64,000 nucleotides of DNA. It comes from a virus. The translations under genes and the position numbers were made by a program. Positions 8,334 to 62,184 of this stretch are shown in pieces (position 1 is the stretch's first letter; each line of letters begins with the position of its first letter). The notes beneath the pieces are model-generated. The model saw only the letters and a program-made list of their open reading frames with translations, did not search any database and was not told the origin of the DNA. The DNA is taken from positions 32,001 through 96,000 of the IMG/VR virus record IMGVR_UViG_3300027791_000009, one strand, 5' to 3'.

Positions 8334-8761
8334 AATTTACCTAAATCGTCTTCTGTAAATATCTTAAACTCAAAACCTTGCATTTCGCAATAACGAACAG
8401 CGGCTGCCCATTTAGCTCTATTTTTGACATATGCTAATGTCTCATTGATATATGCTCTAGTCTTACGAGCTCTAGGTTTAGGTTTCTTTGTGAAGGCCTT
8501 AGGTTTGATTTCAATTATATACTTACCTTTCTTGGTAACTATAAAGAAATCAGGAAAGTAATTATGTATTCTCTTGGTCACAGGATTACGATAAGGAATA
8601 GCAATCTCTTCACTACCCCAATGTGTGATTCCTTCATTACGGTCGCAGTAAACCATAAATCTTCTCTCCCAATTAGAACGATAGATAACTTTTTCGATAT
8701 TACCTAGATATTTGTCTTTGTTTTGAGGTTTGTATCTGCCTTTATAACTTGCTGTAGCCAC
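8330..8761 (-). CDS. gp4: head completion nuclease gp4
   Basis: YKGRYKPQN..KY.G, YRSNWE, WGSEE, YFPDF, IEIKP. Confidence 0.9.
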   Translation of the reverse strand: MATASYKGRYKPQNKDKYLGNIEKVIYRSNWERRFMVYCDRNEGITHWGSEEIAIPYRNPVTKRIHNYFPDFFIVTKKGKYIIEIKPKAFTKKPKPRARKTRAYINETLAYVKNRAKWAAAVRYCEMQGFEFKIFTEDDLGKF

Positions 8762-32481: not shown

Positions 32482-32709
32482 ATGACAAGATTTCTGAAAG
32501 TTGAACAACAAGAATTTTTAATAAGAGATACGGAATCAGGTGGTATCATTAATACAAACTCAAGCGAATATGAGTTGTATATGAAAAGAATACAAATGCG
32601 AAAAGGTAATCTTAACCAAATGAAGTCAATGTGTAGAGAGATAAATAGTTTAAAGCAAGAGTTGTTTGAAATAAAAGATTTAATAAAAAATATGTGTAAG
32701 GATAAATAA
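32482..32709 (+). CDS. small hypothetical protein
   Basis: LIRDTESGGIINT, coiled-coil end. Confidence 0.75.
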   Translation: MTRFLKVEQQEFLIRDTESGGIINTNSSEYELYMKRIQMRKGNLNQMKSMCREINSLKQELFEIKDLIKNMCKDK

Positions 32710-32711
32710 AA

Positions 32712-34013
32712 ATGGCTGTAAGACAGGTAACAGAAACAGATAGTTTAGATAAATTACGAATAGAATTTAACGCATTAGCGTCCTCAGATTTTGGTGATAT
32801 TGCCACTCTGGATGCTACTTTATCTGCTACTTCTGTAATTGGTGCTGTTAACGAAATCAATGGTATTGCAATTGCAGCTGCTGGTTTCACATTAACAGAT
32901 GGAACGAATGTACAAGGTATTGCCTCTGGTAACACATTAACCGTAGCGAGTGGTACAGGTCTTACTGCAACGGTATCAAATCCAGATACATTAACAATCG
33001 GATTAAATACAAACTTAACTGGTCTATCAACAATTGATGTTGCAACAACAGCTGAGATTGCGAACATACAGATTGGTACTTCTTCAATTACTTCTGCAAG
33101 TGGTACAATTGATTTTGGTAACGAACAATTAAATACAACAGGTGGTATATCTGCCGGTGGTACACTTGTTGGTGCTGGATTAACAATCAATGGTGCTTCA
33201 ATGCAATTTGAAGGTGCTACTCCTAATAGTTTTGAAACTACATTACGAGTAGACGACCCATCACAAGATAATGTAATTACACTACCTGACGCTAGTGGTA
33301 CTCTTATTACTTCTGGTGATACGAATACGGTTACACAAACTATGATAGCAGATAATGCTGTAAGTACTTCACAAATTGCTGATAACTCGGTTACGATTGC
33401 AAAACTATCAGGATTTAATTCTGCAACATTAACGGTTGACACTTTAGTTGCAAATACTATTACAGGTACTGCTTCATTATCAAGTGCTGTAGATTTAACT
33501 ACTGAAAATACTCAAAACGCAACAAGATATTTAACTTTTGCTGATAGTACTTCAGGTTCAAATGTTCTAAAAGCAGATTCAGGATTATATTACAATCCAT
33601 CAACAAATATTTTAACAACAACTGCTACATCAGCAAGATATGCTGACTTGGCAGAAAAGTATAAATCTGATAGAGAATATCCAGTAGGTACCGTCTTATG
33701 TATAGGTGGCACAGCTGAGGTAACTATATGTACAGAAAATCATTGCACAAAAGTTATTGGTGTTCAATCAGAAAAACCTGCCTTTATTATGAATGGCAGT
33801 TTAGAAGGTGTTACCTCTACGGTAGCAATGACAGGAAGAGTACCAGTAAGAGTATGTGGTCCTGTAAGAAAAGGCGATATGTTAGTATCTTGTAGTATTG
33901 CAGGATGTGCTAGAGCTGAAGCAGAACCAAGAAACGGTGCATTAATTGGAAAAAGTTTAGTCAATGACGATTCTAACGAAGAGAGAGTTATAGAAGCTGT
34001 TGTTGGTAAATAA
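32712..34013 (+). CDS. fibre/whisker protein with C-terminal intramolecular chaperone-like domain
   Basis: TDSLDKLRIEFN N-terminus; ARYADLAEKY...GRVPVRV.GPVRKGD.LV. Confidence 0.7.
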   Translation: MAVRQVTETDSLDKLRIEFNALASSDFGDIATLDATLSATSVIGAVNEINGIAIAAAGFTLTDGTNVQGIASGNTLTVASGTGLTATVSNPDTLTIGLNTNLTGLSTIDVATTAEIANIQIGTSSITSASGTIDFGNEQLNTTGGISAGGTLVGAGLTINGASMQFEGATPNSFETTLRVDDPSQDNVITLPDASGTLITSGDTNTVTQTMIADNAVSTSQIADNSVTIAKLSGFNSATLTVDTLVANTITGTASLSSAVDLTTENTQNATRYLTFADSTSGSNVLKADSGLYYNPSTNILTTTATSARYADLAEKYKSDREYPVGTVLCIGGTAEVTICTENHCTKVIGVQSEKPAFIMNGSLEGVTSTVAMTGRVPVRVCGPVRKGDMLVSCSIAGCARAEAEPRNGALIGKSLVNDDSNEERVIEAVVGK

Positions 34014-34024
34014 GGAGATATATT

Positions 34025-34504
34025 ATGGACGAACAAACAATCTTATGGATTTCCAGATTAAAAGAAGAAATCCAATCACACACTAGATACGAAGCAAGAC
34101 AACTATTTTACATAGATGAAGAAGGACTTGACCGTGAGGTTAAAGACCATATGTCTTATGGAGAATGGATAAGAGAGTACGATAGATTTAAAACTATTAA
34201 GGTGGAAGGCTTAGAAGATGTAGCCTGGTTAAAAGAAGTTTTAGACGAAGTAGTATTGAATATCACAGGAAAGAAAAGACAAGATATTCATTTATTTGTA
34301 AATCAGAAACCAGGTATTAGTTTTAAAGAACATAAAGATGATAAAGATGTTTACTTATATGTTGTCAAAGGCAAAAAGAAAGTATCTTTAGATGGTGTTA
34401 TTAAACCAGTATATGATGATGAAGGAATATTCATAGAACAAGGTGTAAAACATTATGTTGAAAACGAAGCAGATACTTGGGGGTTAAGTATAGGAGTTAT
34501 ATAA
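34025..34504 (+). CDS. cupin/JmjC-like oxygenase
   Basis: IHLF, SFKEHKDDKDVYLYVVKGKK, IEQGVKHYV (HxD...H). Confidence 0.7.
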   Translation: MDEQTILWISRLKEEIQSHTRYEARQLFYIDEEGLDREVKDHMSYGEWIREYDRFKTIKVEGLEDVAWLKEVLDEVVLNITGKKRQDIHLFVNQKPGISFKEHKDDKDVYLYVVKGKKKVSLDGVIKPVYDDEGIFIEQGVKHYVENEADTWGLSIGVI

Positions 34505-35535
34505 TGAATTGGATGTTTTATTTAAAAACAACCGAAACCTGCAACTTGAATTGTAAACATTGTTTTACTTCAGGTTCAAATGGTCCTAAAGTCTATTGGA
34601 ATCCAGATAAAACCATTAAGTGGTTACAAGATTTCAGAAAATACAATTTTCACAAACACGATACAGCACATTTAGAACTACACGGTGGCGAACCGTTTTT
34701 AGTTCCTGTGTCTGAAATGCAATATGTCTATGAGAACACAAAAGATTTGTGGATTCAACAATCAATGGGCATAACTTCTAACTTAACATTTAAACTAAAA
34801 CAAGAACACATTGACTTCATTAAAGGTCCACTTAAAAATAGATGTGGAACTAGTTGGGATCCTAACATAAGATTTGCAAATGAGAAACAAGCAAACTTAT
34901 GGCGTAAGAATGTAGAGACTTTAATTAGTGAAGGTGTTGATATTAAACTCTTCATATCAGTAACCAAAGACACAATTAGAATTGAACCTATTGAATTACT
35001 TAAATGGGTTAAAGATTTAGGTGTAAAAGAAATGGCACTTGAAAGATTGACTGGAAATGGTAATGCAAACTTGCATCCAGAGATATTTCCTAGAAATATA
35101 GAACAAGATAAGTGGTTTTTAAAAATGCACGAGCAATCTATTCAGTATAACACAAGAGATTGGTTTGATAATGAGTTTTTTGAAACAATTTACTCAAAAT
35201 TTGATACTGGTTCAACAAAAGAAGGCACTTTCTGCCGAGATTGTGAACAAAAACTATTTACACTTAACGCAACTGGCACAATAGGTGGTTGTCCTAATGC
35301 AGCTCCCGAGTTTAATTTTGGAACTATAGATGACCCTCTAGTAGAACTTATAAATAGTCCTAAGAGATTAGAAAATGTTGCTTGTGAAGTAGCAAGAAAT
35401 CCTAAATGCTTTGAGTGTGAAGTATTTAAGTATTGTGGTGGCGATTGTCACCAATTAGCATGGCAAGACGACATATGTGGCGCTCCTAAATCTCTTATGA
35501 AACACTTAAAAAAACAAAGTGAGGCGAAATGGTAA
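34504..35535 (+). CDS. radical SAM/SPASM enzyme 1
   Basis: CNLNCKHC, HGGEPF, CRDC...GGCPN, CFECEVFKYCGGDC. Confidence 0.92.
   Translation: MNWMFYLKTTETCNLNCKHCFTSGSNGPKVYWNPDKTIKWLQDFRKYNFHKHDTAHLELHGGEPFLVPVSEMQYVYENTKDLWIQQSMGITSNLTFKLKQEHIDFIKGPLKNRCGTSWDPNIRFANEKQANLWRKNVETLISEGVDIKLFISVTKDTIRIEPIELLKWVKDLGVKEMALERLTGNGNANLHPEIFPRNIEQDKWFLKMHEQSIQYNTRDWFDNEFFETIYSKFDTGSTKEGTFCRDCEQKLFTLNATGTIGGCPNAAPEFNFGTIDDPLVELINSPKRLENVACEVARNPKCFECEVFKYCGGDCHQLAWQDDICGAPKSLMKHLKKQSEAKW
35349..35356 (+). promoter_or_regulatory. internal late promoter upstream of the putative substrate gene
   Basis: Perfect TATAAATA inside rSAM1, about 170 nt before ATG35529. Confidence 0.45.
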
Positions 35536-36302
35536 CTTTAAACAACCCGATAACAAGTCAAAATATAGTTGATAGATTTGAAGAACTGGTAACAGATGTA
35601 GCAGACCACCATATTGTATGGGGTACTGATAATCTACCAGGACACTCTTCATTTACTTCTGCTGATTTTGGTGGTGTTGTTGACGGATTTGAATTAACAC
35701 TAACAGGTGTGACTGGAACTTATACAGCAGGTGAAACGGTTAACTCTACAATAACTGCAACAACTGGTATCGTAGTTAGTTATTCTAGCAATGTATTAAA
35801 ATTAAGAACAATTAATCCAGGTGCTGGTCAAACAGGATTCTTACAAAACGATATTATATCAGGCACTTCTTCAGGTGCTGTAGGTACGGTTAATACTTTA
35901 GCAGTAATAAGTGCTGTATCAATTGGTATCACAGGTTCTAATATCGGTAATGCAGGTTCAGTAATTACTGCAAACAATATTTACGGTACACTAAAAGCAG
36001 AAATGAATAATTATACTAATATCAAAAATACATACGCTATAGTTAGTATGACAGGTGCAGGAACACAATATTCGGATACACAAATTGCACACTTAACAAC
36101 TGCACAAAGAACAACATTAAATCCATCACAACCTAGTAGTTTACAACCTGGTCAAACAATTGACGATACAAATTTAGAATCGTTTATGTCGAGCCTTGCA
36201 AACGCATATTCTACTGAAAGAGGTAACACTTATACATTAACAAAAACTATATGTCATAGTAGCTGTCATAGTAGTTGTCACGGAAGTAGAGGAAGAAGAT
36301 AA
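35529..36302 (+). CDS. virion-type protein with C-terminal (CHxS)3 RiPP-like core; putative rSAM substrate
   Basis: Thr/Ser/Gly-rich body with a baseplate-like GETV/FLQNDIISG module; ends ICHSSCHSSCHGSRGRR. Confidence 0.75.
   Translation: MVTLNNPITSQNIVDRFEELVTDVADHHIVWGTDNLPGHSSFTSADFGGVVDGFELTLTGVTGTYTAGETVNSTITATTGIVVSYSSNVLKLRTINPGAGQTGFLQNDIISGTSSGAVGTVNTLAVISAVSIGITGSNIGNAGSVITANNIYGTLKAEMNNYTNIKNTYAIVSMTGAGTQYSDTQIAHLTTAQRTTLNPSQPSSLQPGQTIDDTNLESFMSSLANAYSTERGNTYTLTKTICHSSCHSSCHGSRGRR
36252..36287 (+). repeat. three 12-bp tandem repeats encoding CHSS/CHSS/CHGS
   Basis: TGTCATAGTAGC TGTCATAGTAGT TGTCACGGAAGT. Confidence 0.9.
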
Positions 36303-36967
36303 TGATTAATACTATTGTACCGATTGAATTGAAAGACTTAAAAAAATACTTTGAAGATAAGACAGAAAGTTATCTTATTGATTACGAAAACAGCACATTA
36401 AAAGGTGCTCAGTTTCTAACCTATTTAAGTAATTTAGATATACCTTGTGATATATTAAATATGGACGAAGAACTAATTAGTGAATATCTTAACACACAAA
36501 TGTTAGTAAATATACCTAAATTAGAAAAAGAAATAATCGCTGTATTATTTGAACACAAGGGGTTGTCAAAGACAGATAAATATAAGAGTGTTATAGAAAA
36601 GAACAAAGAAATACTTGACAAGTGGGAAGGCAAATTAGAAAGTCTACCATTGTATAATATGTCAATCGTTGGTGAAGGTGCTTTTAATGAATTTGTTGAG
36701 AGTTATCCTAAAGACGAGACAGAAGATGTTAGAGGTATTAACTTTGTTTCATTATTAAAACACAAAGAATTTTATAGTTATTATCAAATACAAAAAGAAG
36801 GTATTGTTAAGAACTATACGAAGTACTTTAAAGATTATATGTTTAAAGGTAAATCTTTATTTGAATATTGGGCGACAGAAAGTAATCCACTATTCTTAAT
36901 GACTTGGGCAATTGCCGAAGGTAAATTTGATACAAAAGAATATTTAAAAGGTAAAGAGAAAAACTAA
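36302..36967 (+). CDS. hypothetical protein in rSAM cluster
   Basis: Coupled to the upstream gene by TAATG; FLTYLSNLDIPCD. Confidence 0.8.
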   Translation: MINTIVPIELKDLKKYFEDKTESYLIDYENSTLKGAQFLTYLSNLDIPCDILNMDEELISEYLNTQMLVNIPKLEKEIIAVLFEHKGLSKTDKYKSVIEKNKEILDKWEGKLESLPLYNMSIVGEGAFNEFVESYPKDETEDVRGINFVSLLKHKEFYSYYQIQKEGIVKNYTKYFKDYMFKGKSLFEYWATESNPLFLMTWAIAEGKFDTKEYLKGKEKN

Positions 36968-36968
36968 T

Positions 36969-52160: not shown

Positions 52161-55100
52161 ATGGCAACAACAAAAACTAGAATTGGTAATCTGTTCTTCA
52201 ATTACCAGGGTGATTATTCGAGTACGAAGGCTTATATAAAAGATGATGTTGTATTACACAACAATTCTGATTATATTTGCGTTAAAAACTCGTCTACTAC
52301 AGGAGTAGCACCTGATACTGGAACAGAAGCTCAACAAAAAAGATATGCAAGGGTAACAATTGCTACATCAGCAACTACTGGTGGTAATGCTTATAAATGG
52401 GACGGTGAATCTACTTGGCCTCAAACAGAAGTACAATACAAAATTGGTGATACATTAGTATTATACCAAGACGGTAATGACTTTGATGATAATAAGATTG
52501 CATTTTCTAACTCTGCTACATCAAAAGAAACAAATTTATTCCACACAGATGTAACCTATATGCTAGACGGTAAGTCTGTTGGTGGTGGAACTGCAAGTGG
52601 TAACTACTTTAACTCTGGTACATTTAACAATGCTACTAAAAGAGAAATTAGAATAGAGATTACTGCTGAAACTCCAAAAGAAATCTATATCTTCAACTTT
52701 GATAATCCTTCTGCTACTTGGGGACCTAAAATGGTCGTTGCCGAAAACCAAGTATGGAAAGAAATCAGACAATCATTTAAATGGAGAGGTGACCATAGTG
52801 AAGCTTCTATAGTTTACAATCCAAATGACTTAGTACATATTAATGTTCCTGTAGATAATGACTTTTCTACAAACAATCAATATTCTGGAGACCAAATACA
52901 AAATATTAGAGCAACTTATGTCTGTTTGAGAGAACACACATCTGGTGTTGCAGGTACTTTACCTTGGGACCAAGATACTGATACAGACGCAAATAAGTAT
53001 TGGGAAAGAATTTCAGAAGAACATCAATTTGATGACGAAACAATTACAGATAGTGGTGCTGTTGCAACAATAGACACTTCATCTACTTCTGCTTCTCCTG
53101 CTAGACAAGCAGGATTTTATCCTTTCGTAAATACTACAAATATTACTGCCGCTGCTGAAAATAGTGGTGCAGGAAGAACGAACGGTTATAATACACCACA
53201 GGTTAACATAACGGTCGAAGGTTACCAATCTGCTAAAACGGTTGGCAACTTCTCTACTGCACATTACAAAAGAAAACCTGGTATTTACAGAAACTTAACT
53301 CCAACTTCAACTTCAGGTGCTGGTTCAAACGCAACATTTGATGTAGAAGTAGACAACAACGGTGCTGTAATTTCAGTCGCTGTTACCAAGAAATCACTTG
53401 GTGGTCAAATGGGAGGTTTAGGATATGCTGTTAACGAAACAATTACTTTGGCTGACGCACTTATAGGAGCTGGTGGTGCACCTGACTTTACTTTTGATGT
53501 GACAGCAATTGGTACTTGGGGAGCTCTTCAAATAGAAATCGCTAGAGACCAAAAAAGAGGAATGCAAAACGCACAATGGGAAAATAATAACGAACCTGAA
53601 TTACTTGGTGGAGAAAACAACGCTGCTGCTGATGTATTAGCTGTTGACGCACAAGTATTATATTCTAGTGCAGCTGTACAATTCTCTGTGGTAACTACAC
53701 AGAAAAAAGCAAGAGGTTATCAAAACTTCTTTAGTGGAAACAGATTAGAAGCAATGGCATTATGTAATGAAAACGGACCTATCGGTGATGACCATCCGTT
53801 ATACAGATTGCCTGGACAATTCCAACAAGCGAATTGTTATAACTGGCCTTGTTTCATTAACGGTAGAGGTTCAATTACAAGTTGGGGTTCAAACTCTAAC
53901 GGTCAAAACGGATTAGAAACTGGTTCTGTTATGACTGGTGTTGGTATGGTATTTCCATTCCTTGACTGGTACAGAAGTACAGATAACGGTGGTAGTGGTA
54001 TTCATACTACTCCTGATGGAGAACCACCAAAAGCAATTCAACTATTATCTGGATATGAAGTTGGTATGGCACTATTTAATAATGGTGAAATATACCATTG
54101 GGGTTACGGAGGTCACGGACAAAATGGTGACGCTGCTGATTCTAATAGAGGATATCCGACAAGACCTGGTGGAACATACCAAGAAATTTATCAAGCTTCT
54201 AACACTTCAACGCATACATTGAAAGATACAAGAATTAAAAGAATTTACATTACTAATTGGGGCGGAGACAATAACACAAATACACACTCTGTTTATGCGT
54301 TAGATACTAACGGTGAACTATGGGCTTGGGGTTACAATGGATACGGTCAATTAGGACAAAACAATACAACTAATTTAAATAGACCTACAAAAATTAATAA
54401 GACTACTTACTTCAATGGTAATAAGATTGACGCTTTCTGGACTGCTGGTGCAGGATACGCTTTCTGTTTTGCTTTAGATGTAACCGGTAAATTATATACT
54501 TGGGGTTATAATGGTTACGGTGTTTTAGGACAAGGTAACACCACTAACTTATCAGTACCAACTCAAATTCCAACTATCGTTTGGGATAACGGTGCTGCTA
54601 ATCCTGGTAAGATTAAAAAATTATTAGTAGACTCGCAACAATCATATCAAAGATGTGCCATTCTTACTGAAAAAGGTAAGATATATTGGTGTGGAAGGAA
54701 TGAATACGGTTGGGCTATGATGGGCAATACTACAGATGTAAGTACATTTACAATTATGTCTAATGGTCCAGGAAGTGGAACATATTCTGATTGTCAAAAT
54801 ATGTGGTTTACAGGTAACGGAAGATACGCAAGTTTCTGGACTAAAGATAGTACAGACTCTATTAAGTGCTGTGGTTACAATGGTAACTATGAACTAGGTA
54901 TTGGTAACTCAACAAACCAAACTGCTGCTATTTCACCAAAATGGCAGATTAATGGAACTACAACTTCTGACTTACATAACATTAAAGACATCGGTTGTAA
55001 TAGTGAATATGGTAACCAATGGATGTGTAATGTATGGGTATTAACATATGACGGATTTATGTTTAATGTAGGAAGAAATAATTACGGAATCGGTGCTCAA

Positions 55101-55379
55101 GGATATAGTAGTGATTATACCAGCAGACAATCAACTAATGGTATTGAAGAAACAGATGATTATTATTTCCAAATGCAAAGAATGCCTAATTACGCTCACG
55201 GAAGAGTTGAAGATGTAAGAGGACGAGGTTACTACTCTACAGACGGTAATAGATATCACTTTAGAGAAATTAGAACTTTTGATAACAGATACCTAATTTG
55301 GGGTTACGGTGGAGACCATATACAAGGTCAAAATGACGGTAATTATAGCTCTATGCCACAACCCGCTGTTTTAGGATAG
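52161..55379 (+). CDS. RCC1-repeat virion protein 1
   Basis: Repeated WAWGYNGYGQLG-type motifs. Confidence 0.8.
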   Translation: MATTKTRIGNLFFNYQGDYSSTKAYIKDDVVLHNNSDYICVKNSSTTGVAPDTGTEAQQKRYARVTIATSATTGGNAYKWDGESTWPQTEVQYKIGDTLVLYQDGNDFDDNKIAFSNSATSKETNLFHTDVTYMLDGKSVGGGTASGNYFNSGTFNNATKREIRIEITAETPKEIYIFNFDNPSATWGPKMVVAENQVWKEIRQSFKWRGDHSEASIVYNPNDLVHINVPVDNDFSTNNQYSGDQIQNIRATYVCLREHTSGVAGTLPWDQDTDTDANKYWERISEEHQFDDETITDSGAVATIDTSSTSASPARQAGFYPFVNTTNITAAAENSGAGRTNGYNTPQVNITVEGYQSAKTVGNFSTAHYKRKPGIYRNLTPTSTSGAGSNATFDVEVDNNGAVISVAVTKKSLGGQMGGLGYAVNETITLADALIGAGGAPDFTFDVTAIGTWGALQIEIARDQKRGMQNAQWENNNEPELLGGENNAAADVLAVDAQVLYSSAAVQFSVVTTQKKARGYQNFFSGNRLEAMALCNENGPIGDDHPLYRLPGQFQQANCYNWPCFINGRGSITSWGSNSNGQNGLETGSVMTGVGMVFPFLDWYRSTDNGGSGIHTTPDGEPPKAIQLLSGYEVGMALFNNGEIYHWGYGGHGQNGDAADSNRGYPTRPGGTYQEIYQASNTSTHTLKDTRIKRIYITNWGGDNNTNTHSVYALDTNGELWAWGYNGYGQLGQNNTTNLNRPTKINKTTYFNGNKIDAFWTAGAGYAFCFALDVTGKLYTWGYNGYGVLGQGNTTNLSVPTQIPTIVWDNGAANPGKIKKLLVDSQQSYQRCAILTEKGKIYWCGRNEYGWAMMGNTTDVSTFTIMSNGPGSGTYSDCQNMWFTGNGRYASFWTKDSTDSIKCCGYNGNYELGIGNSTNQTAAISPKWQINGTTTSDLHNIKDIGCNSEYGNQWMCNVWVLTYDGFMFNVGRNNYGIGAQGYSSDYTSRQSTNGIEETDDYYFQMQRMPNYAHGRVEDVRGRGYYSTDGNRYHFREIRTFDNRYLIWGYGGDHIQGQNDGNYSSMPQPAVLG

Positions 55380-55387
55380 TATAAATA
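55380..55387 (+). promoter_or_regulatory. T4-type late promoter
   Basis: TATAAATA. Confidence 0.75.
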
Positions 55388-55416
55388 TAAAGAACAATTA
55401 AGATAGGAAAATAAAA

Positions 55417-58400
55417 ATGGCAAAAATTAATCTCGGAAGAATTAAATTACAATTCCAAGGAGAGTTCAATAAGGACCAACAATACAGACGAGACGATATT
55501 GTTTATCATAATAACGCAATGTGGATTATGAAACAAGAATACTTTGCTGATGGTTCTTCTGCGTATGCTCCTGGTACTAAAATCTTTGGATATAATCCAA
55601 AAGATATCACTGGCGACTTCTGGTCAAACGACCCGAACTTCAATGGTGAAGATAGCACCTTCAAGCACAACCAATACTGGACTGAAAACGAAAGAAGAGG
55701 CGAAACAAGTAGAACTGACCAAGACGGTAATCCTATCACAAAAAACTCTACTTACGGCTCTAACGAAGACGGTGCAAGAGAAATTAGACACGATTATATT
55801 GATTCATCATTAGGAACGGTTGTACGCCATCAACAAAACTTAATGGGTGAGTATGACGCTATGTTTCAACAAACAGAAGACGATTACGACCAATTAGATA
55901 CATATAATCATTACGAACAAAATTACTTTAGATATCATTATACACCTGCACACAATACATTTGTTGTAGAGGTTAATGTATCAGGTGGTGTTCCAGATTT
56001 TAAAATTGATAACAGACTTGGTAACGATACTAAAGGTAGACAATTTGAAGGATATAGAAACTGGGAAAACTTCAAAGAAGGACACACATACAGATTTTCA
56101 CAAGACAAACCTAATAACAAATATTATCCATTAGGTTTCTCTTACACTTCTGACGGAATACACAACGCCGGCGATACTGGTAAGTCATTAGGACAAGATC
56201 CTGATGGACCTTACTATGTTAAAGGTACTGCTTCAAATGGTGATAGTGGATTCTTTTCACCTATGTATAAAAATGAAGCGACTGCGATTGCTGAAGATAC
56301 AAGAAGAGGTGGTGCTGGTGTTGCTCATAAACTTTCTTTCAACGAAGGTGATGTACCTGGTTGGGAAACAGAAGCAAGTTCCTCATTAAAAGGACATTTA
56401 CATTCAGACGGAACTCAATTAAAAGATACGGTTGTATCTGTATTGACAGACGCTAGTAATAACACATACTTACAAGTATCAAATGCTTGGGCAGGACAAA
56501 CATCAGGTGGTGTTTCTGCACACGCAAGAAAAACAATTTATCTTAACACAGGTGACTCAACTGAATATCATTCAATCACTGGAAGTACACACTCATATGT
56601 GTATGTTCAAGGTGCATTAAAAGTTGGTTCTAATGTTTCTGCTGTAATCACTCAACAAAGAGACGATACAACAACTGCAAACGATAGTGCCGGAAGAAAA
56701 ATATTATTAGTAAATGGTCATCCTGTTTATCAACTAGTTGGTGAAGCTTCTTCTTCAACGGTTGGTGGTATCTCTGGTGCTTATCAAGCACTTACAAATG
56801 CCGGTACAGGAACAACTACTACTCTAGGTGCAAGTGCTGCTTCAAACGAAGGTTTAGTAGACTTGTATATGCCGAAACTTACAGACCCAACAGCAAATGT
56901 TGAAAGAACAATGCAAGTTTCAGTTGCTAATCCTGGTTCAGGAAACAAATTCTACATTGATGGTAGTTTACCAACTGCAACTTCAATTATGTTAGAAGAA
57001 GGAAAAACTTATAAGTTTGACCAATCTGATAGTACAAATGCTACGCATTTATTAAAACTATCAACTACTTCTGACGGAACACACGGTGGCGGTGCTGAAT
57101 ATACTGCTGGTGTTAAAATAGTAGGTACTCCTGGAAACAGAGGTGCATACACAGAAATTAAATTAAGAACTGGAGTAGCAAAACTTTACTTATATTGTAA
57201 TGCTCATTCTGGTATGGGTCAAGCTGCTGAAACATTTGATGTTTCAACAAATCTTGGAAAAACATACGCTCCTGGTAACATTAAAAAGTGGCAAGGTTAC
57301 AACAAAAACGGTGTTGTTAAGTATTACTTAAACGGCACACAAGTTGACGAAAACACTTACATTGAAACATTTTTCAATGATAATGTAGTAAAAGATAGAA
57401 ACTATCCTAAGACTATGCCTAATAATAAAGTTAAAGGTGGAAACAAATATACTTTTGAACATATGGCAGGAAGATATGTTGAGATAACTATTCCTTATCA
57501 AGCAACACAATCAGACGCTGAAAGTACAAAAATATATCCATTCTGTTTAGAACCTACAACGGCTGCTAGACAAACTTCTGGAATGTATAACACATTCGGT
57601 TGGGACATTGAGAAGTCTTGGAGAGGTCATAGACATTGGGATAAAGTACAATCTTCTATGAGATTTAGAGGAGAGTTTAGTCCTAATACACAATACAACT
57701 ACAATGATATTATTTCATACAAACCTTATAAAAGACTTTCTACTGGAGAGAAATTTTATAAACACGGTACTGGTTTATACAGATGTTTAAGAGACAATAG
57801 AGGAAGACCACCTCAACACGGATTCCAAGAACCTACAAGGTCTCCATTGATGACTGCTTCAACGGTTACTTCTGGAAGATTAACTGGAAGAAGTGAACAC
57901 GAACAAAACAATGAGACAGGTAAGAATTATCCTGCACATATTCAATCGTATCACAACTGCTGGGAATCTTGGGCTGGAATGAACAACCAAGAACAAGGTG
58001 CTGGTGTTTGGTTCCCGAACAAAGGACCAATGGCATGGCCATACAAACACGGTTCTTCAACTGGTGCAAACATCTACAGATGTCATATGTACATTGATAA
58101 GAATGGTGCTGTATGGGTTATCGGAAACGGTACTTCATCACACAATATGGAACAAGGTCGTTCTTCTTCATACTTTAGAGAAGTAACCTTTAGATGGAGA
58201 GATTTCTACAATTCTGAAAACAGAAACGAAGGCGGTTACAACGAAAGAAGAAGTAGTAAGTGGACTCGTTATGACAGAATGAGAACTCCTAGAGCTATTC
58301 AAATTGAAATGTCTTATGACGGAACAATGATTTTGTTTGACAATGGACAAATCTTCCACGGAGGTTACGGTTCACATGGTCAACAAGGTACTGGTTATGA

Positions 58401-59520
58401 CGGTGCTCCTGGTTCTGCAATGTCACCTGACGGATTAGAAGATGTACACTTTATCAAAATCGCAATGAAAACTAATAACGAAGATTCAATTCATACTCCT
58501 TGCGGATTAACAGATGATGGAGATGTATATGTTTGGGGTTACAATGGTTATGGTGAAGTCGGAGACGGTAGAACACAAAACGCATATGGTCCTAAGAGAA
58601 TACCAAGAGAATTCTTTAATGACGAAAAAATTATTGATATTTTAGCAACCGGTGGAGATAGTACTTCATTCTATGCTAGAACATCACAAGACAACATTTA
58701 CGCTTGGGGAAGAAACAACATCGGCCAATTAGGAGATACAACAACAACTGACAAATACAGACCAGTATTAATGACTGGATTTGTTGCTTCAGACAATGGT
58801 GGTATCGCTGTATGGCAAGGTAATGCTCACTCATCAAACTCAAATTTCTCAATACTAGACGGAAACGGATTTATATGGGCAACAGGTTACAACGGTTATG
58901 GTAACTTTGTTGACAATACAACAGCTAACAAAGCTACATTAACTAAATCAACTGCTGCTCCTAATGGAGACATTGCAGACTTCTGGACATTATTCTGGAA
59001 TGGATATCATACAACATTTATGAGATTGAAAAATGGTGAAACTTGGACTGCTGGACATAGTGGTGGATACTACAACTCTGGTGATGGTGGAACTGGAACA
59101 AACCAGGCACCTGTACAAGTAGATAAGATAACTAATCTAAAAGAAGTTTGTATATGTAATACATATTCAGACCAAGGTAGAAGTTATTGGTTAACAGATA
59201 ATGGTGAATTCTTTAGTCAAGGCCGTGATGTATACGGTTCTATGCCAAATAGTGTTGCCGGAGATAACTGGACTGGTGAAGATGGAACATACAAACCTTT
59301 CCACGCTTTTGTACCTGCAGGAACTAGAATTAGAACTATGTGTATTCAAGGTATTGACCAATCAACAAGCTACTACGGACTTCAACCAATGGTTGGAACA
59401 GAAGATGGCCAAGTTTTACTTTGGGGCTATTCTTCAAACAATAACCTAGGACACCACGCTAGTGCAACTTACTCAAATACGGGTCGTTCACAAATGTGGA
59501 ATGCTGGTATAGGTAGATAA
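55417..59520 (+). CDS. RCC1-repeat virion protein 2 with cupredoxin-like insert
   Basis: VWGYNGYGEVG, AWGRNNIGQLG; YKFDQSD...YCNAHSGMG. Confidence 0.8.
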   Translation: MAKINLGRIKLQFQGEFNKDQQYRRDDIVYHNNAMWIMKQEYFADGSSAYAPGTKIFGYNPKDITGDFWSNDPNFNGEDSTFKHNQYWTENERRGETSRTDQDGNPITKNSTYGSNEDGAREIRHDYIDSSLGTVVRHQQNLMGEYDAMFQQTEDDYDQLDTYNHYEQNYFRYHYTPAHNTFVVEVNVSGGVPDFKIDNRLGNDTKGRQFEGYRNWENFKEGHTYRFSQDKPNNKYYPLGFSYTSDGIHNAGDTGKSLGQDPDGPYYVKGTASNGDSGFFSPMYKNEATAIAEDTRRGGAGVAHKLSFNEGDVPGWETEASSSLKGHLHSDGTQLKDTVVSVLTDASNNTYLQVSNAWAGQTSGGVSAHARKTIYLNTGDSTEYHSITGSTHSYVYVQGALKVGSNVSAVITQQRDDTTTANDSAGRKILLVNGHPVYQLVGEASSSTVGGISGAYQALTNAGTGTTTTLGASAASNEGLVDLYMPKLTDPTANVERTMQVSVANPGSGNKFYIDGSLPTATSIMLEEGKTYKFDQSDSTNATHLLKLSTTSDGTHGGGAEYTAGVKIVGTPGNRGAYTEIKLRTGVAKLYLYCNAHSGMGQAAETFDVSTNLGKTYAPGNIKKWQGYNKNGVVKYYLNGTQVDENTYIETFFNDNVVKDRNYPKTMPNNKVKGGNKYTFEHMAGRYVEITIPYQATQSDAESTKIYPFCLEPTTAARQTSGMYNTFGWDIEKSWRGHRHWDKVQSSMRFRGEFSPNTQYNYNDIISYKPYKRLSTGEKFYKHGTGLYRCLRDNRGRPPQHGFQEPTRSPLMTASTVTSGRLTGRSEHEQNNETGKNYPAHIQSYHNCWESWAGMNNQEQGAGVWFPNKGPMAWPYKHGSSTGANIYRCHMYIDKNGAVWVIGNGTSSHNMEQGRSSSYFREVTFRWRDFYNSENRNEGGYNERRSSKWTRYDRMRTPRAIQIEMSYDGTMILFDNGQIFHGGYGSHGQQGTGYDGAPGSAMSPDGLEDVHFIKIAMKTNNEDSIHTPCGLTDDGDVYVWGYNGYGEVGDGRTQNAYGPKRIPREFFNDEKIIDILATGGDSTSFYARTSQDNIYAWGRNNIGQLGDTTTTDKYRPVLMTGFVASDNGGIAVWQGNAHSSNSNFSILDGNGFIWATGYNGYGNFVDNTTANKATLTKSTAAPNGDIADFWTLFWNGYHTTFMRLKNGETWTAGHSGGYYNSGDGGTGTNQAPVQVDKITNLKEVCICNTYSDQGRSYWLTDNGEFFSQGRDVYGSMPNSVAGDNWTGEDGTYKPFHAFVPAGTRIRTMCIQGIDQSTSYYGLQPMVGTEDGQVLLWGYSSNNNLGHHASATYSNTGRSQMWNAGIGR

Positions 59521-59565
59521 CATAAATAGAAGTATAACAAATAAAGAAAACGGAGAAAAAACAAA

Positions 59566-59955
59566 ATGGCAAAAGTAATTTATTCAATGACTGCTGGAAT
59601 CGGTCAAGGTGACAACTATACTGCTCCTACAGGAGATACGCCAATCAGTTTAGGAGAATTAAGTGGAAAAACTTATTTTTCAATTGATGATGGTAATACT
59701 ACTATCACAACTGATGGCGAAAATCTTTCTGTATACGGTGTAGCGATTGTAACCGACGCTGACGAAAAGGCAAGTATTCAAGCTGCTTCAGCTCATGTTG
59801 AGCAAGGCTTGTCTAACTTAGATAACGAATTTATGAATGGTAAATCAATGATTGACCTATTAGCAGATGTAGCTGATGACACTTCAGCAACAAAAACTGC
59901 AATAGCAACTCACAAAGCGGCTAAGGCTTCATTTTTATCAAACTTAGGATTCTAA
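59566..59955 (+). CDS. hypothetical virion protein
   Basis: CATAAATA at 59521-59528; SD GGAG. Confidence 0.7.
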   Translation: MAKVIYSMTAGIGQGDNYTAPTGDTPISLGELSGKTYFSIDDGNTTITTDGENLSVYGVAIVTDADEKASIQAASAHVEQGLSNLDNEFMNGKSMIDLLADVADDTSATKTAIATHKAAKASFLSNLGF

Positions 59956-59988
59956 AGACAGATTAATTAAAAAGAAGGTAATAGCAAT

Positions 59989-62184
59989 ATGGCACTAGAT
60001 ATACAAAACTTTAAAGTATCCTGGAAAGGAAACTGGAAAGATAAAGAGAAGTATTACAAGAATGATATAGTTTACTGGAGAGGTAAATCATACAGATGTA
60101 CAGAAGAGACACCTGATAGTTTTACAATTTCAAGTGAAGCTATGATTAATACTAACTCTTACGGCCAGTACAGCCCTACGGTTGTTAGACGGTCATACAG
60201 ACCTGACAACAATAGATATTGGGCATTATTGCTAGCAGGTAACGACAACATTGAAACTTGGCAGTATTGGAGACAATACGAAAGAGGAGAAATGTGTAAA
60301 GTAGCTGACAAGATTTATCTTTGTTTAAGAAAAACAAGATATTGTAATACTTGGGTAGAAGAACACGATGGTAATCCATCAAAATATTGGGTACTTGTTT
60401 ATGTTAACGAAAACAAGTGGAGTACAAGAAACGAAGTAGTTTCATTTAACAACCGAGCTCCGTTAGGTTGGAAATATAATATGGGTGTTGACACTTCTGA
60501 TAGTGCTGACCAAACATATAGAAGTTGTACACTATGCTCAGATGGTTCTGATATGTGGGTAGGTTCTTCTGAAGGAACTTCTTCATCTGGATTAGGTGAC
60601 GGTGTTGCTGGAAATGACGAACCTGGAAAACACTTTTCTACAGGATTTACATTTACTGATTGGATGGCTTCTACAGACAACCAATCTTGGAATATTAATG
60701 CTACAGGTAGAATGACTACACCTGATGGAAAAGCACCAAGAGTAATACAAGTTAGAAAAAATCAAAATAGAACTTTCTGGTTAATGAACAATGGTGAAGT
60801 TTACGCTGCTGGTGAAAATGGAAACTACGGTTTAGGAAATTCAGAAACTACAGATAGAAATTATAGTGTAAGGGTTACTGCTAATGATACAACAGATTGG
60901 CAAGGTAACACTATAGGCAAAACATTCAATCAAACTAAAATGGTTAAAGTCGGTATGTCCGACGCCGGACATGACGCAGGAACATCATCTTGTTTCTCAC
61001 TAGGTGATGACGGTTCAGTATGGGTTTGGGGTTACAATAACAACGGTCAATTAGGACTAGGTAATCCAACAATAAACAATTCAGCAGACACATCTGGTGG
61101 ACCAACAAATACTGCTTTCTATAGTGCCAATGTGACCAGACCAGTTAGATTACCTCAATCATACTTTGACGGAAGACAAATCATTGATATGTGGACTTCA
61201 GGTTCAGAAGAGGCATGGTTTCACGCATTAGACGAACAAGGTCAACTATGGGCTTGGGGACATAACCAACACGGTGAATTAGGAGTAGGAAACAGAAATG
61301 GCTCTTACTACTATACACACCCACAAAGAGTTGGTATCAACTGGAACAGATACGGTGGAATTAAAATGTACAAGACAACTCACTCAAACGGTGGACACTC
61401 TTGTACTCACATATTAGACGGCGAAGGCTATATGTGGTTTACAGGTTACACAACCTCAGGCGCTTGGCCAATTGGTTCTCCTGGTTATACAGGAACACAT
61501 CATATTGGTTCATTCAGAAGAGAAGGTCACCACTTAAATGGAGATATTGACTTCTTCTGGTGTGGTGGAGATGAGAACAAATGGTTATATATCAGACAGA
61601 AAACTACTGGTATGCTATGGGTACATGATGGTAACTATGGTACATACGGTGGTCGTGGACAATCAGTTGAAAGTAATGCCTACTGGTATGTTTCAGGTGG
61701 TCACCCAGGAAGTTTCATACATATGAAAGGTCCTAAATGGGCAGTTAATGTATGTGATGTAGGTATGAGTAGAGCTGATGGTACTTATATGTACTCTTTC
61801 CCAATGATACTTGATGACGAAGGTTTGATATGGGGCGGTGCTCCTTATGGAAATGACGAACAAGGTCTTGGTGGAGATAGTGGTTCTGATGACCAATGGG
61901 AAAATGGTGGTAGAAACGATACCGGTCAAGGTATGGAAGACAATGAAATGTTTAGAACAAGAAAGAAAATCGTATTTCAACCTGCTGGTGGACATAGATG
62001 GACAGACTTATTCTATTCAGGAACTGGTTCTTCAAATTGTCCGAGAGCTATTAATCAACGAGGTCAAATATATTGGACTGGTTATGATGGCGGTGCTTCG
62101 GTAACTATGAACTATGATTACTATTCTGAAGGTGCTAATGGCAACCAGACTTCACACTTCTTCCATTTGGGTCCTAGAGACTAG
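59989..62184 (+). CDS. RCC1-repeat virion protein 3
   Basis: VWGYNNNGQLG, WAWGHNQHGELG. Confidence 0.8.
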   Translation: MALDIQNFKVSWKGNWKDKEKYYKNDIVYWRGKSYRCTEETPDSFTISSEAMINTNSYGQYSPTVVRRSYRPDNNRYWALLLAGNDNIETWQYWRQYERGEMCKVADKIYLCLRKTRYCNTWVEEHDGNPSKYWVLVYVNENKWSTRNEVVSFNNRAPLGWKYNMGVDTSDSADQTYRSCTLCSDGSDMWVGSSEGTSSSGLGDGVAGNDEPGKHFSTGFTFTDWMASTDNQSWNINATGRMTTPDGKAPRVIQVRKNQNRTFWLMNNGEVYAAGENGNYGLGNSETTDRNYSVRVTANDTTDWQGNTIGKTFNQTKMVKVGMSDAGHDAGTSSCFSLGDDGSVWVWGYNNNGQLGLGNPTINNSADTSGGPTNTAFYSANVTRPVRLPQSYFDGRQIIDMWTSGSEEAWFHALDEQGQLWAWGHNQHGELGVGNRNGSYYYTHPQRVGINWNRYGGIKMYKTTHSNGGHSCTHILDGEGYMWFTGYTTSGAWPIGSPGYTGTHHIGSFRREGHHLNGDIDFFWCGGDENKWLYIRQKTTGMLWVHDGNYGTYGGRGQSVESNAYWYVSGGHPGSFIHMKGPKWAVNVCDVGMSRADGTYMYSFPMILDDEGLIWGGAPYGNDEQGLGGDSGSDDQWENGGRNDTGQGMEDNEMFRTRKKIVFQPAGGHRWTDLFYSGTGSSNCPRAINQRGQIYWTGYDGGASVTMNYDYYSEGANGNQTSHFFHLGPRD

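Follow-up and report, generated by a model that had tools for sequence, protein, structure and literature searches.

In the HXS antiphage system, the protein HxsA is matured by enzymes of the radical S-adenosylmethionine (rSAM) type, HxsB and HxsC, with HxsD (Li et al., Nat Commun 2026, PMC13128918). The passages of that report that deal with the system describe HxsA as a 214-aa HxS-repeat protein that needs two rSAM enzymes and a small partner, that has a peptidoglycan-binding domain and is cleaved and exported, and that shows a +8 Da change at SHRSS whose structure was not assigned; they place HXS in bacterial defence, 99.7% in Pseudomonadota, with the gene order D-B-C-A. The rSAM cyclophane synthases HtkB and HaaB, according to the passages of PMC11499958 that concern them, link His C2 to C-beta in three-residue motifs. 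We analysed a viral DNA stretch of 64,000 nucleotides (hereafter the window: bases 32001-96000 of the 119,869-nt IMG/VR record IMGVR_UViG_3300027791_000009, with a CheckV completeness of 82%), in which a 257-aa protein with the C-terminal tail (Cys-His-x-Ser)3-Arg-Gly-Arg-Arg is encoded inside a cassette of rSAM and oxygenase genes. We hold it to be fairly probable that this protein is a component of the fibre module whose tail is matured by the co-encoded rSAM and oxygenase enzymes. A preliminary description of the same DNA had treated three-residue cyclophanes as established for HxS proteins; in the passages cited above they are described for HtkB and HaaB (PMC11499958), whereas only the +8 Da change is given for HxsA (PMC13128918).

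The cassette resembles what those passages say of HXS in that its candidate substrate is a full-size protein with His-x-Ser units in tandem and many basic residues in them, and in having, beside more than one rSAM, a small partner that is not an enzyme. Unlike in HxsA, the units of the tail (H-S-S, H-S-S and H-G-S) each stand behind an invariant Cys, recur with a period of 4 and lie at the extreme C-terminus. The cassette also departs from HXS in its three to nine SPASM-type rSAMs accompanied by a cupin and 2-oxoglutarate (2OG) oxygenases, in its location in a fibre gene block, in its gene order and in a tail protein that has no Pfam domain. HxsA-type models, on the assumption that the NCBIfam library, which holds HxsB and HxsC, also includes HxsA, gave no match at E <= 10 to four representatives (the window protein P0001, P0121, the 126-aa tandem form and the Bdellovibrionota form), P0001 and the Bdellovibrionota form having no NCBIfam match at all at that threshold. 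The HxsB and HxsC models scored far below cut-off (rSAM1 against TIGR03978, 31.7 bits for a cut-off of 370; rSAM3 against TIGR03977, 29 bits for 267.9). Judged by sequence, the cassette is not a member of HXS or of any characterised class of peptides that are made on the ribosome and modified after translation (RiPPs), and HXS is its closest precedent.

Other rSAM systems offer partial likenesses. With the maturases of triceptides and of sacti- and ranthipeptides (HtkB/HaaB, PapB) the cassette shares CxxxCxxC, the SPASM auxiliary-cluster Cys and a substrate gene beside the enzyme gene, and the tail has motifs plausible for such enzymes: His-x-x could serve a His-C2 to C-beta link, and Cys could serve thioethers. 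It differs from them in having no short leader/core peptide and no hypervariable core, the candidate substrate being a folded protein of a virion gene block, and its NCBIfam scores for such maturases, 21-43 bits, fall short of cut-offs of 340-650. In the QhpC/QhpD pair, an rSAM/SPASM enzyme makes three Cys-to-Asp/Glu thioethers in the small subunit of quinohemoprotein amine dehydrogenase, so that three Cys are crosslinked in a subunit that stays in a larger assembly; QhpC, in contrast, is a periplasmic enzyme subunit that lacks a Cys-His repeat, is served by a single rSAM and stands in neither a phage nor a fibre context. Anaerobic sulfatase-maturating enzymes (anSME, TIGR03942) are rSAM/SPASM proteins that act on a Cys or Ser of a folded protein, and rSAM1, encoded directly upstream of the tail gene, matches them at 7e-11. 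The last unit of the tail, C-H-G-S-R, loosely recalls the sulfatase motif C/S-x-P/A-x-R, and its +2 residue was G in 99, S in 11, N in 2 and D in 1 of 113 tailed sequences, never P or A. A formylglycine site of the anSME type was ruled out, since the tail does not show this motif, no sulfatase domain is present and the rSAM1 score of 41.8 bits lies below the cut-off of 349.

The tail protein and its C-terminal repeat

The gene and the parts of its product are laid out in the window as follows.

35529..36302, + strand: 257-aa candidate fibre-module protein with a C-terminal (CHxS)3-RGRR tail (translation, homologues, structure model)
35688..35921, + strand: inserted beta domain, about residues 54-131 (gaps in alignment A1, BFVD matches)
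36252..36299, + strand: 16-residue tail CHSSCHSSCHGSRGRR, (Cys-His-x-Ser)3-RGRR (translation, Tandem Repeats Finder, family alignment)

Positions 35529-36302 form a stop-free frame of 257 codons on the + strand, whose product ends in KTICHSSCHSSCHGSRGRR immediately before the stop. Its only Cys are residues 242, 246 and 250, and the DNA that encodes them is a tandem repeat (36252-36280; period 12, 2.4 copies, 94% matches by Tandem Repeats Finder). The gene overlaps the open reading frame (ORF) of rSAM1 upstream (34477/34504-35535) by 7 nt, and its TAA stop shares 1 nt with the ATG of the next gene at 36302 (TAATG); these overlaps point to a single translationally coupled unit. The length of the protein, the confinement of its three Cys to the terminal repeat, the 12-bp repeat in the DNA and the position directly behind rSAM1 all agree with what had been reported in the preliminary description. 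No Pfam or NCBIfam family matched the tail protein, and its match to PHROG 35144 is confined to residues 214-257. The tail contains C-x-x-x-C-H twice; a covalent haem site there was considered and dropped, since haem attachment requires export and a Ccm-type system and the N-terminus of the protein is not signal-peptide-like.

A protein similarity search from P0001 found 294 proteins at E <= 0.01, 120 of which were listed. The ending CHxxCHxxCHxxRxRR was present in 113 of the 121 sequences made up of P0001 and the listed homologues, with all C, all H and the three R invariant and with the x positions occupied chiefly by Ser, Ala, Thr or Gly; agreement on this scale goes far beyond what chance would produce. 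The remaining eight are partial or chimeric matches that cover 32-97% of the query and whose ends run into other sequence. In the homologues P0019 and P0030 the tail is replaced by short foreign-looking ends; both look like read-end chimeric assemblies and were left out of the count of natural tail-less forms. Nine of the 23 invariant columns of alignment A1 (30 sequences) fall in the last 16 residues, and the tail is thus, on the alignment, the most constrained part of the family, a point that the earlier description had proposed for checking.

The number of repeat units, whose variation among homologues had also been raised, turned out to be nearly fixed. A profile search of 1.84 billion cluster representatives (clusters defined at 50% identity) returned 660 matches at E <= 0.001, 298 at 1e-10 and 97 at 1e-30; among the matches listed, 134 of 146 new sequences had exactly three units followed by RxRR, and the other 12 were either truncated or rare variants, in which a Gly is added ahead of the Arg block, the second unit is degenerate or the units number just two. 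Over 173 distinct proteins, three units were counted in 170 and four in 3. Four CHxx units are accordingly rare; the loci with rare forms are L115 8105-8878 (-), L230 864-1433, L238 156-764 and L229 3907-4266 (-), the last of which, on a Dysosmobacter isolate contig, is a 5'-cut ORF with two blocks of three units (3+3).

At the DNA level, 190 distinct tail-coding sequences showed synonymous variation, with TGT/TGC, CAT/CAC, both AGY and TCN for Ser, and both AGR and CGN for Arg; this set was gathered by a pattern that fixes C, H and R, and only its synonymous spread is informative. Such free codon variation indicates that the constraint acts on the peptide and not on the DNA repeat. A DNA-level cause of the 12-bp repeat, such as slippage or a recombination site, was ruled out by the same variation among the homologues. 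The bodies carrying the tail fall into clusters of 127, 38, 2 and 2 plus four single proteins (173 proteins), and one tail on different bodies is as would be expected if the tail were a recognised element. Its near letter-for-letter retention across T4-like, phiKZ-related and Rak2-like phages and in predatory bacteria argues for a function under strong selection.

The AlphaFold2 (AF2) model of the window protein, built with A1, had a mean predicted local distance difference test score (pLDDT) of 87.2 and a predicted template modelling score (pTM) of 0.81. It comprises an N-terminal helix, a beta domain at about residues 54-131, a C-terminal alpha/beta domain and a low-confidence tail from residue 242, with pLDDT values of 62 and 50 in the last two 10-residue blocks. 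The tail is thus modelled as an exposed, unstructured C-terminal end on an otherwise confident fold. The beta domain is gapped in 25 of the 30 rows of A1 and is not part of the majority form of 177-200 aa. In a BFVD search the best matches were family members, gp170 of phage Atu_ph07 among them, and the inserted domain accounted for matches, 70-90 columns long, to structural, fibre and baseplate proteins from cyanophages. This domain also has a weak internal match to an 854-aa baseplate-type protein encoded by the phage of the window. Searched against PDB folds, the P0001 model had no match at E <= 0.001; the best one (E 0.058, 91 columns) was to a Klebsiella phage baseplate chain and again lay on the inserted domain. 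The structural-type body suggested in the preliminary description is borne out by this recurrence of the beta domain and by the placement of the gene in a tail-fibre block.

At the insertion point other phages insert a Gly-rich domain or split the gene, and bodies of 250-364 aa with other inserted domains occur in a sample collected by pattern scanning (see below). The resulting design, which places a variable, displayed insert between a conserved N-module and a conserved C-module ending in the invariant tail, is as expected of a fibre accessory protein or adhesin. In L025, L026, L027 and L063 (~7052-8420 in each) the tail gene is split exactly at this point into a 308-aa ORF, with the N-terminal module and the Gly-rich domain, and a separate 140-aa ORF, with the C-terminal domain and the tail.

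Linkage to rSAM and oxygenase genes

We gathered 79 viral loci through the tail-protein alignment and counted neighbouring genes over the loci whose DNA reaches far enough. The rSAM1 gene stood directly upstream of the tail gene in 71/71 loci, so the adjacency first noticed in the window holds throughout, and the gene for p221, a conserved protein of 221 aa, stood directly downstream in 71/71. The gene for p371, a second conserved partner, was present in 71/71, rSAM2 in 67/67 and rSAM3 in 60/60; a cupin gene lay upstream in 61/70, and the accessory protein p219 was present in 29/60. Of 78 loci with an ORF, 77 had the tail, the sole exception being cut by a contig end, and the 79th locus comprises 39 codons only; absence or decay of the tail beside the rSAM genes, named earlier as what would speak against a substrate role, was not what we found. 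A fibre-like gene was located upstream in 64 of the 79 loci and a VrlC-like gene in 57.

A second sample, obtained by scanning viral contigs for the tail-plus-stop pattern, gave at least 117 loci with 138 tail ORFs. At least one rSAM-like ORF, and up to about nine in one locus, was found in 108 of the 117 loci listed; the other nine are chiefly short stretches or include only the upstream (fibre-gene) side of the tail gene. A second class of tail proteins, found in several loci (L083, L108, L117, L148, L167 and others), consists of tandem pairs of ~126-aa paralogues encoded directly behind a fibre gene; a p221 homologue and between five and nine rSAM-like ORFs come ~2 kb further on, so that enzymes greatly outnumber repeat units.

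All large ORFs of the window are on the + strand, and its G+C content is 35%. Upstream of the cassette come baseplate wedge genes of the T4 type and a gene for a 2033-aa phrog_358 protein, which we equated with VrlC by size and position only; downstream come tail-fibre and fibre-assembly genes. The source is a marine T4-like phage, with the tail gene beside the tail-fibre genes. The cassette spans 34025-43251 and runs in the order cupin, rSAM1, tail protein, p221, p371, rSAM2, p219, rSAM3, oxygenases and rSAM4.

32712..34013, + strand: 433-aa protein resembling tail fibres, directly upstream of the cassette (residues 301-394 match phrog_22593 and phrog_19602, 'tail fiber protein')
34025..34504, + strand: candidate cupin-fold Fe(II) oxygenase, 159 aa (Pfam Cupin_2, 30.9 bits against a cut-off of 27.2)
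34477..35535, + strand: rSAM1, radical SAM/SPASM (phrog_1802, 1.2e-65; SPASM TIGR04085, 33.1 bits against 27)
36302..36967, + strand: p221, conserved partner, 221 aa (phrog_20767, 5e-57)
36969..38084, + strand: p371, conserved partner, 371 aa (no Pfam, PHROG or NCBIfam match)
38093..39145, + strand: rSAM2, radical SAM/SPASM, 350 aa (phrog_1802, 9.2e-41)
39045..39704, + strand: p219, accessory protein (no Pfam, PHROG or NCBIfam match; the ORF overlaps the end of rSAM2 and its true start is uncertain)
39695..40789, + strand: rSAM3, radical SAM/SPASM, 364 aa (Pfam Radical_SAM, 29.6 bits against 29.5; phrog_1802, 1.1e-56)
40767..41231, + strand: small 2OG/Fe(II)-oxygenase-like protein, 154 aa (phrog_274, 8e-12, 'DNA endonuclease V')
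41197..41742, + strand: second candidate 2OG-Fe(II) oxygenase, 181 aa (Pfam 2OG-FeII_Oxy_3, 25.8 bits, just below the cut-off of 27)
41739..42299: ORF with no assigned family, within the cassette
42280..43251, + strand: rSAM4, fourth radical SAM enzyme, 323 aa (phrog_1802, 6.8e-31; Pfam Radical_SAM, 25.6 bits, below cut-off)

Three rSAM genes had been counted in the preliminary description; the window has four, and in addition the cupin gene and two genes for 2OG-type oxygenases. The cassette thus reaches beyond the genes given in that description, with 41197-43251 adding the second 2OG-Fe(II) oxygenase candidate, the ORF at 41739-42299 and rSAM4. All the rSAMs have CxxxCxxC near the N-terminus, and rSAM1-3 also have a C-terminal Cx2Cx5Cx2-3C Cys set of the SPASM type. 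The rSAM1 ORF opens at a TTG at 34477, with the ATG at 34504 as the likely start; numbered from the latter, CxxxCxxC, GGEP, C244/C247/C263 and Cx2Cx5Cx3C...C are invariant in 41 homologues. In rSAM2 the two Cys motifs lie at residues 24-31 (CxxxCxxC) and 301-314 (Cx2Cx5Cx3C), and TIGR04085 scored 19.8 bits for rSAM2 and 24.5 for rSAM3, both below the cut-off of 27. The rSAM3 gene is 64.8% identical in nucleotides to gp165 of Atu_ph07. With these motifs intact, the cassette rSAMs look active and of the peptide- or protein-modifying type. H103-x-D105...H143 of the cupin is invariant in 89 aligned homologues, and H84-x-D86...H132...R143 of the 40767-41231 protein, the signature of 2OG/Fe(II) oxygenases, in 10. 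Since these residues are invariant, both proteins are probably Fe(II) oxygenases, and the PHROG name of endonuclease V is probably wrong for the second.

The NCBIfam families nearest to the cassette rSAMs were DynA, anSME, PapB, HxsB, HxsC and the cyclophane synthases, at 17-43 bits for cut-offs of 180-650. The best equivalog scores were 42.6 bits for DynA (cut-off 450) and 41.5 for PapB (340), and XyeB, YhhB, FxsB and the SCIFF maturase also stayed below cut-off. With every score so far below the family cut-offs, the cassette rSAMs make up a separate subfamily. Neither Pfam nor NCBIfam gave any cassette protein a match of the PqqD type, which would mark a RiPP recognition element (RRE), and the start of the cluster motif at residues 11-31 leaves no room for an N-terminal RRE in the rSAMs. 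Scans with Pfam, PHROG and NCBIfam detected no protease or transporter families within 32482-45030.

The non-enzyme partners p221 and p371 are, as we see them, candidate adaptors or chaperones. The AF2 model of p221 is confident (pLDDT 93.3) and had no PDB fold match (best E 0.18), and a p221 profile gave 0 matches at E <= 1 among PDB sequences; going by the model, p221 could still be a new kind of adaptor. A decayed rSAM was ruled out as its origin (hhalign against rSAM1, probability 0.1). Conservation of at least 90% is limited in p371 to the N-terminal MxHLFxxxY, D85 and E171 (83 sequences), and p219 has many conserved columns from M10 on (33 sequences). The ESM Atlas provided no usable match for either p221 or p371, and its model of p221 is poor.

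Occurrence in cultured phages and Bdellovibrionota

Homologues of rSAM1 are encoded by cultured jumbo phages: Agrobacterium phage Atu_ph07, Sinorhizobium phage Phosso, Ralstonia phages RSL2 and RSF1 and their relatives, the Burkholderia glumae phages FLC6, FLC8 and SURPRISE13, and Pseudomonas phage pPa_SNUABM_DT01. The tail protein of Atu_ph07, gp170 (296 aa), ends in CHSSCHASCHNSRSRR, and its gene lies in the order cupin gp172, rSAM gp171, gp170, gp169, rSAM gp168, gp167, gp166, rSAM gp165 and a further rSAM-like ORF. In RSF1 the cupin (ORF069), rSAM (ORF070) and tail protein (ORF071) genes stand behind baseplate and virion-protein genes, and the block ends, after the last rSAM, with a gene annotated as a 2OG-Fe(II) oxygenase. 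Approached from the enzyme side, the tail protein came right after rSAM1 in both records read, out of 15 cultured-phage records with an rSAM1 homologue. A tblastn search with P0001 and P0121 against 50,697 phage records gave no match at E <= 1e-3; that it missed Atu_ph07 and RSF1 is probably due to the low-complexity filter and to divergent bodies.

Scanning prokaryotes for the same pattern, with each species represented by one genome, turned up 47 loci, and in 38 of these an ORF ends in the tail. One of the 47 is a low-complexity chance match, and eight have no tail ORF (seven chance or out-of-frame matches and one at a locus edge). Next to the tail, 36 of the 38 loci have rSAM-like ORFs. Of the 47 loci, 27 belong to Bdellovibrionota, where the contigs are as long as 2.8 Mb and the cassettes include homologues of p221 and p371. 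One of these cassettes (L237 2152-3879) also encodes a 575-aa radical SAM protein of the B12-binding kind, a hint that C-methylation is a further step in some lineages.

The cassette shows a further likeness to trimeric adhesive fibres with a C-terminal Peptidase_S74 chaperone, a group that comprises phage tail spikes and fibres and Bdellovibrio fibre proteins: it adjoins genes of this kind in Bdellovibrionota and tail-fibre genes in phages. In two Bdellovibrionota loci a neighbouring gene, identified by domain match, combines a prepilin-type N-terminal methylation motif with the Peptidase_S74 fibre-chaperone domain.

L205 5955-7142, - strand: neighbour with prepilin motif and Peptidase_S74 domain
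L214 448-1575, - strand: neighbour with prepilin motif and Peptidase_S74 domain

Measured over five Bdellovibrionota genomes, each with only 1-3 S74 genes, the distance from the cassette to the nearest of them was 6.8, 7, 7.5 and 17 kb in four (G001, G002, G004 and G005) and 562 kb in the fifth. This proximity indicates that the tie to adhesive fibres holds outside phages as well. None of the papers that our literature searches turned up describes an rSAM-dependent accessory protein for such fibres.

A separate case is L210 (NZIN01000021.1, 32.5 kb), which was binned with a metagenome-assembled genome labelled 'Rickettsiales' and holds a VrlC-like gene, a fibre gene, a near-identical 257-aa tail protein and the cassette. 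It is probably a phage contig that was binned by its host-like composition, and the binning gives a weak hint of a SAR11-type host.

Proposed maturation of the tail and alternative explanations

Four lines of evidence lead us to regard the tail as a substrate: the obligatory synteny across distant genomes, the intact catalytic motifs, an exposed and invariant tail on exchangeable bodies, and two precedents. What the data show is the sequence and its conservation, the obligatory linkage of the genes, the intact motifs and the position beside fibre genes in phages as in predatory bacteria; that the tail is modified at all, which enzyme would do what, that the protein is located in the virion and what the modification would be for are inferred. 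The 257-aa protein would belong to the host-recognition (tail-fibre) module of the phage, and its exposed C-terminal 16 residues would be the substrate of a set of four radical SAM/SPASM enzymes, a cupin Fe(II) oxygenase and two 2OG-type oxygenases, with the conserved non-enzymes p221 and p371 probably serving as adaptors or chaperones. Their action would take place inside the infected cell, either ahead of fibre assembly or while it proceeds, and would introduce covalent changes on Cys, His, Ser or Arg side chains. Our guess is one small ring per CHxS unit, formed either as a Cys thioether or as a His-C2 to C-beta cyclophane with a partner two to three residues on, to which the oxygenases may add hydroxylation. 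Such changes would give the fibre apparatus a rigid knob that resists proteases and may also bind metal.

A wider proposal, which we put forward only tentatively, is that unrelated phage lineages and predatory Bdellovibrionota share this rSAM/oxygenase kit and with it rebuild the invariant tail of a small accessory protein of their trimeric adhesive fibres into a crosslinked, possibly metal-holding warhead required for recognising or gripping the envelope of the prey cell. If true, this would provide the first case of a virion or fibre protein modified after translation by a radical-SAM enzyme, together with host-recognition chemistry that is unpublished; the known substrates of rSAM maturation are small secreted peptides and, from 2026 on, a single effector of bacterial defence, and we know of no phage particle or fibre protein among them. 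The tail is probably a part of the prey-gripping apparatus that enzymes modify and that has not been described before; its large cassette, with at least 13 genes in the window, belongs to the host-recognition block in marine T4-like phages, which are abundant. Should the tail be modified, it would constitute a new class of substrate, and probably new chemistry, for rSAM/SPASM enzymes, would offer a handle on prey binding by these phages and by Bdellovibrio-like predators, and would explain why phages of the iron-poor surface ocean carry oxygen-sensitive Fe-S enzymes. A literature search found no function assigned to the cassette: the relevant passages of PMC7029224 mention rSAM cassettes in the host-recognition cluster of pelagimyophages, those of PMC8066314, PMC11898562 and PMC5468394 merely list cassette genes, and what PMC12801897 treats in the corresponding passage is an unrelated rSAM gene.

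Several observations weigh against maturation of the tail by the cassette enzymes. Presence in the virion is hinted at by one sentence on a range of gene numbers, according to which most virion proteins of Atu_ph07 are encoded in clusters including 'CDS 170-215' (PMC6102473, that passage); the locus tag of its tail protein is gp170, which would fall in this range if the two numberings agree. An invariant 'core' on a folded 'leader' of 120-364 aa is, by the alignments, unlike classical RiPPs, and in Pfam and NCBIfam scans none of the cassette proteins matched an RRE domain, a leader peptidase or an exporter. Counts of rSAM genes run from 3 to ~9 and do not follow the three repeat units; some rSAMs may therefore have substrates other than the tail, the fibre for example. 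The loci were collected by way of the tail protein, which makes the linkage counts conditional on it, and the check in the reverse direction covered 2 of the 15 cultured-phage records. The Cys3His3 motif could also bind metal with no modification at all. A complex prediction for rSAM1 (alignment A3) with residues 132-257 of the tail protein (A1), run without controls, scored 0.01 against a mark of 0.32 and is neutral on binding. The earlier idea of a core peptide fused to a structural leader therefore stands in part: the rSAM adjacency, the conservation of the tail and the structural-looking body speak for it, and the invariant core, the fixed repeat number and the lack of RRE, peptidase and exporter matches speak against it.

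The metal-binding capacity of the motif is the basis of another explanation, which we consider rather unlikely, in which the tail would be an unmodified Zn, Fe, Cu or Fe-S site on an oligomeric fibre tip and the enzymes would have a different target, for instance the fibre, a further virion protein or a molecule of the host surface. The invariant residues are indeed the metal-binding ones (three Cys and three His) at regular spacing, the tail gene lies in a fibre block, the number of rSAMs does not scale with the three units, and the T4 fibre proteins gp37 and gp12 have His residues that hold metal ions along the trimer axis. A metal site would leave unexplained, however, the translational coupling of the tail gene to rSAM1 (71/71), the occurrence of one tail on unrelated bodies that all keep the enzymes, and the equally invariant Ser-rich x positions and R-x-R-R end. 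The AF2 model has the tail unstructured, although a metal-free monomer could not have revealed such a site.

It is improbable, in our view, that the protein is instead a carrier for a released small molecule or cofactor, for example a metallophore or redox cofactor, whose C-terminal residues would be crosslinked and oxidised by the rSAM/SPASM enzymes and oxygenases and then cut off for use in the infection, in the manner of PqqA for pyrroloquinoline quinone (PQQ) or MftA for mycofactocin. An invariant C-terminal core next to rSAM/SPASM enzymes and oxygenases does resemble the cofactor-type RiPP pathways of PQQ and mycofactocin, and a peptidase could be hidden among p221, p371 and p219. Against it, the scans of the cassette region detected no peptidase or transporter family, and a soluble cofactor would leave unexplained why these are folded 120-364-aa proteins with adhesin-type insertions that always lie at fibre genes, in phages and in Bdellovibrionota alike.

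Finally, that the tail is a recognition or assembly tag with no chemistry, a basic Cys/His-rich peptide docking to p221/p371 or to the fibre while the enzymes are an unrelated auxiliary module merely sharing a variable host-recognition island, fits the passages of PMC7029224 that describe pelagimyophage host-recognition clusters as mosaics with inserted rSAM cassettes, and also the linkage of p221 and p371 to the tail gene, as tight as that of the rSAMs, but seems very improbable to us, since the tail-rSAM linkage survives across T4-like, phiKZ-related and Rak2-like jumbo phages and bacterial chromosomes, which is unexpected of chance neighbours.

Farther along the window, downstream of the tail fibres (52161-62184), proteins of 1072, 1367 and 731 aa match PHROGs named 'regulator of chromosome condensation'; these RCC1-like beta-propeller-repeat proteins are probably further fibre or receptor-binding proteins.

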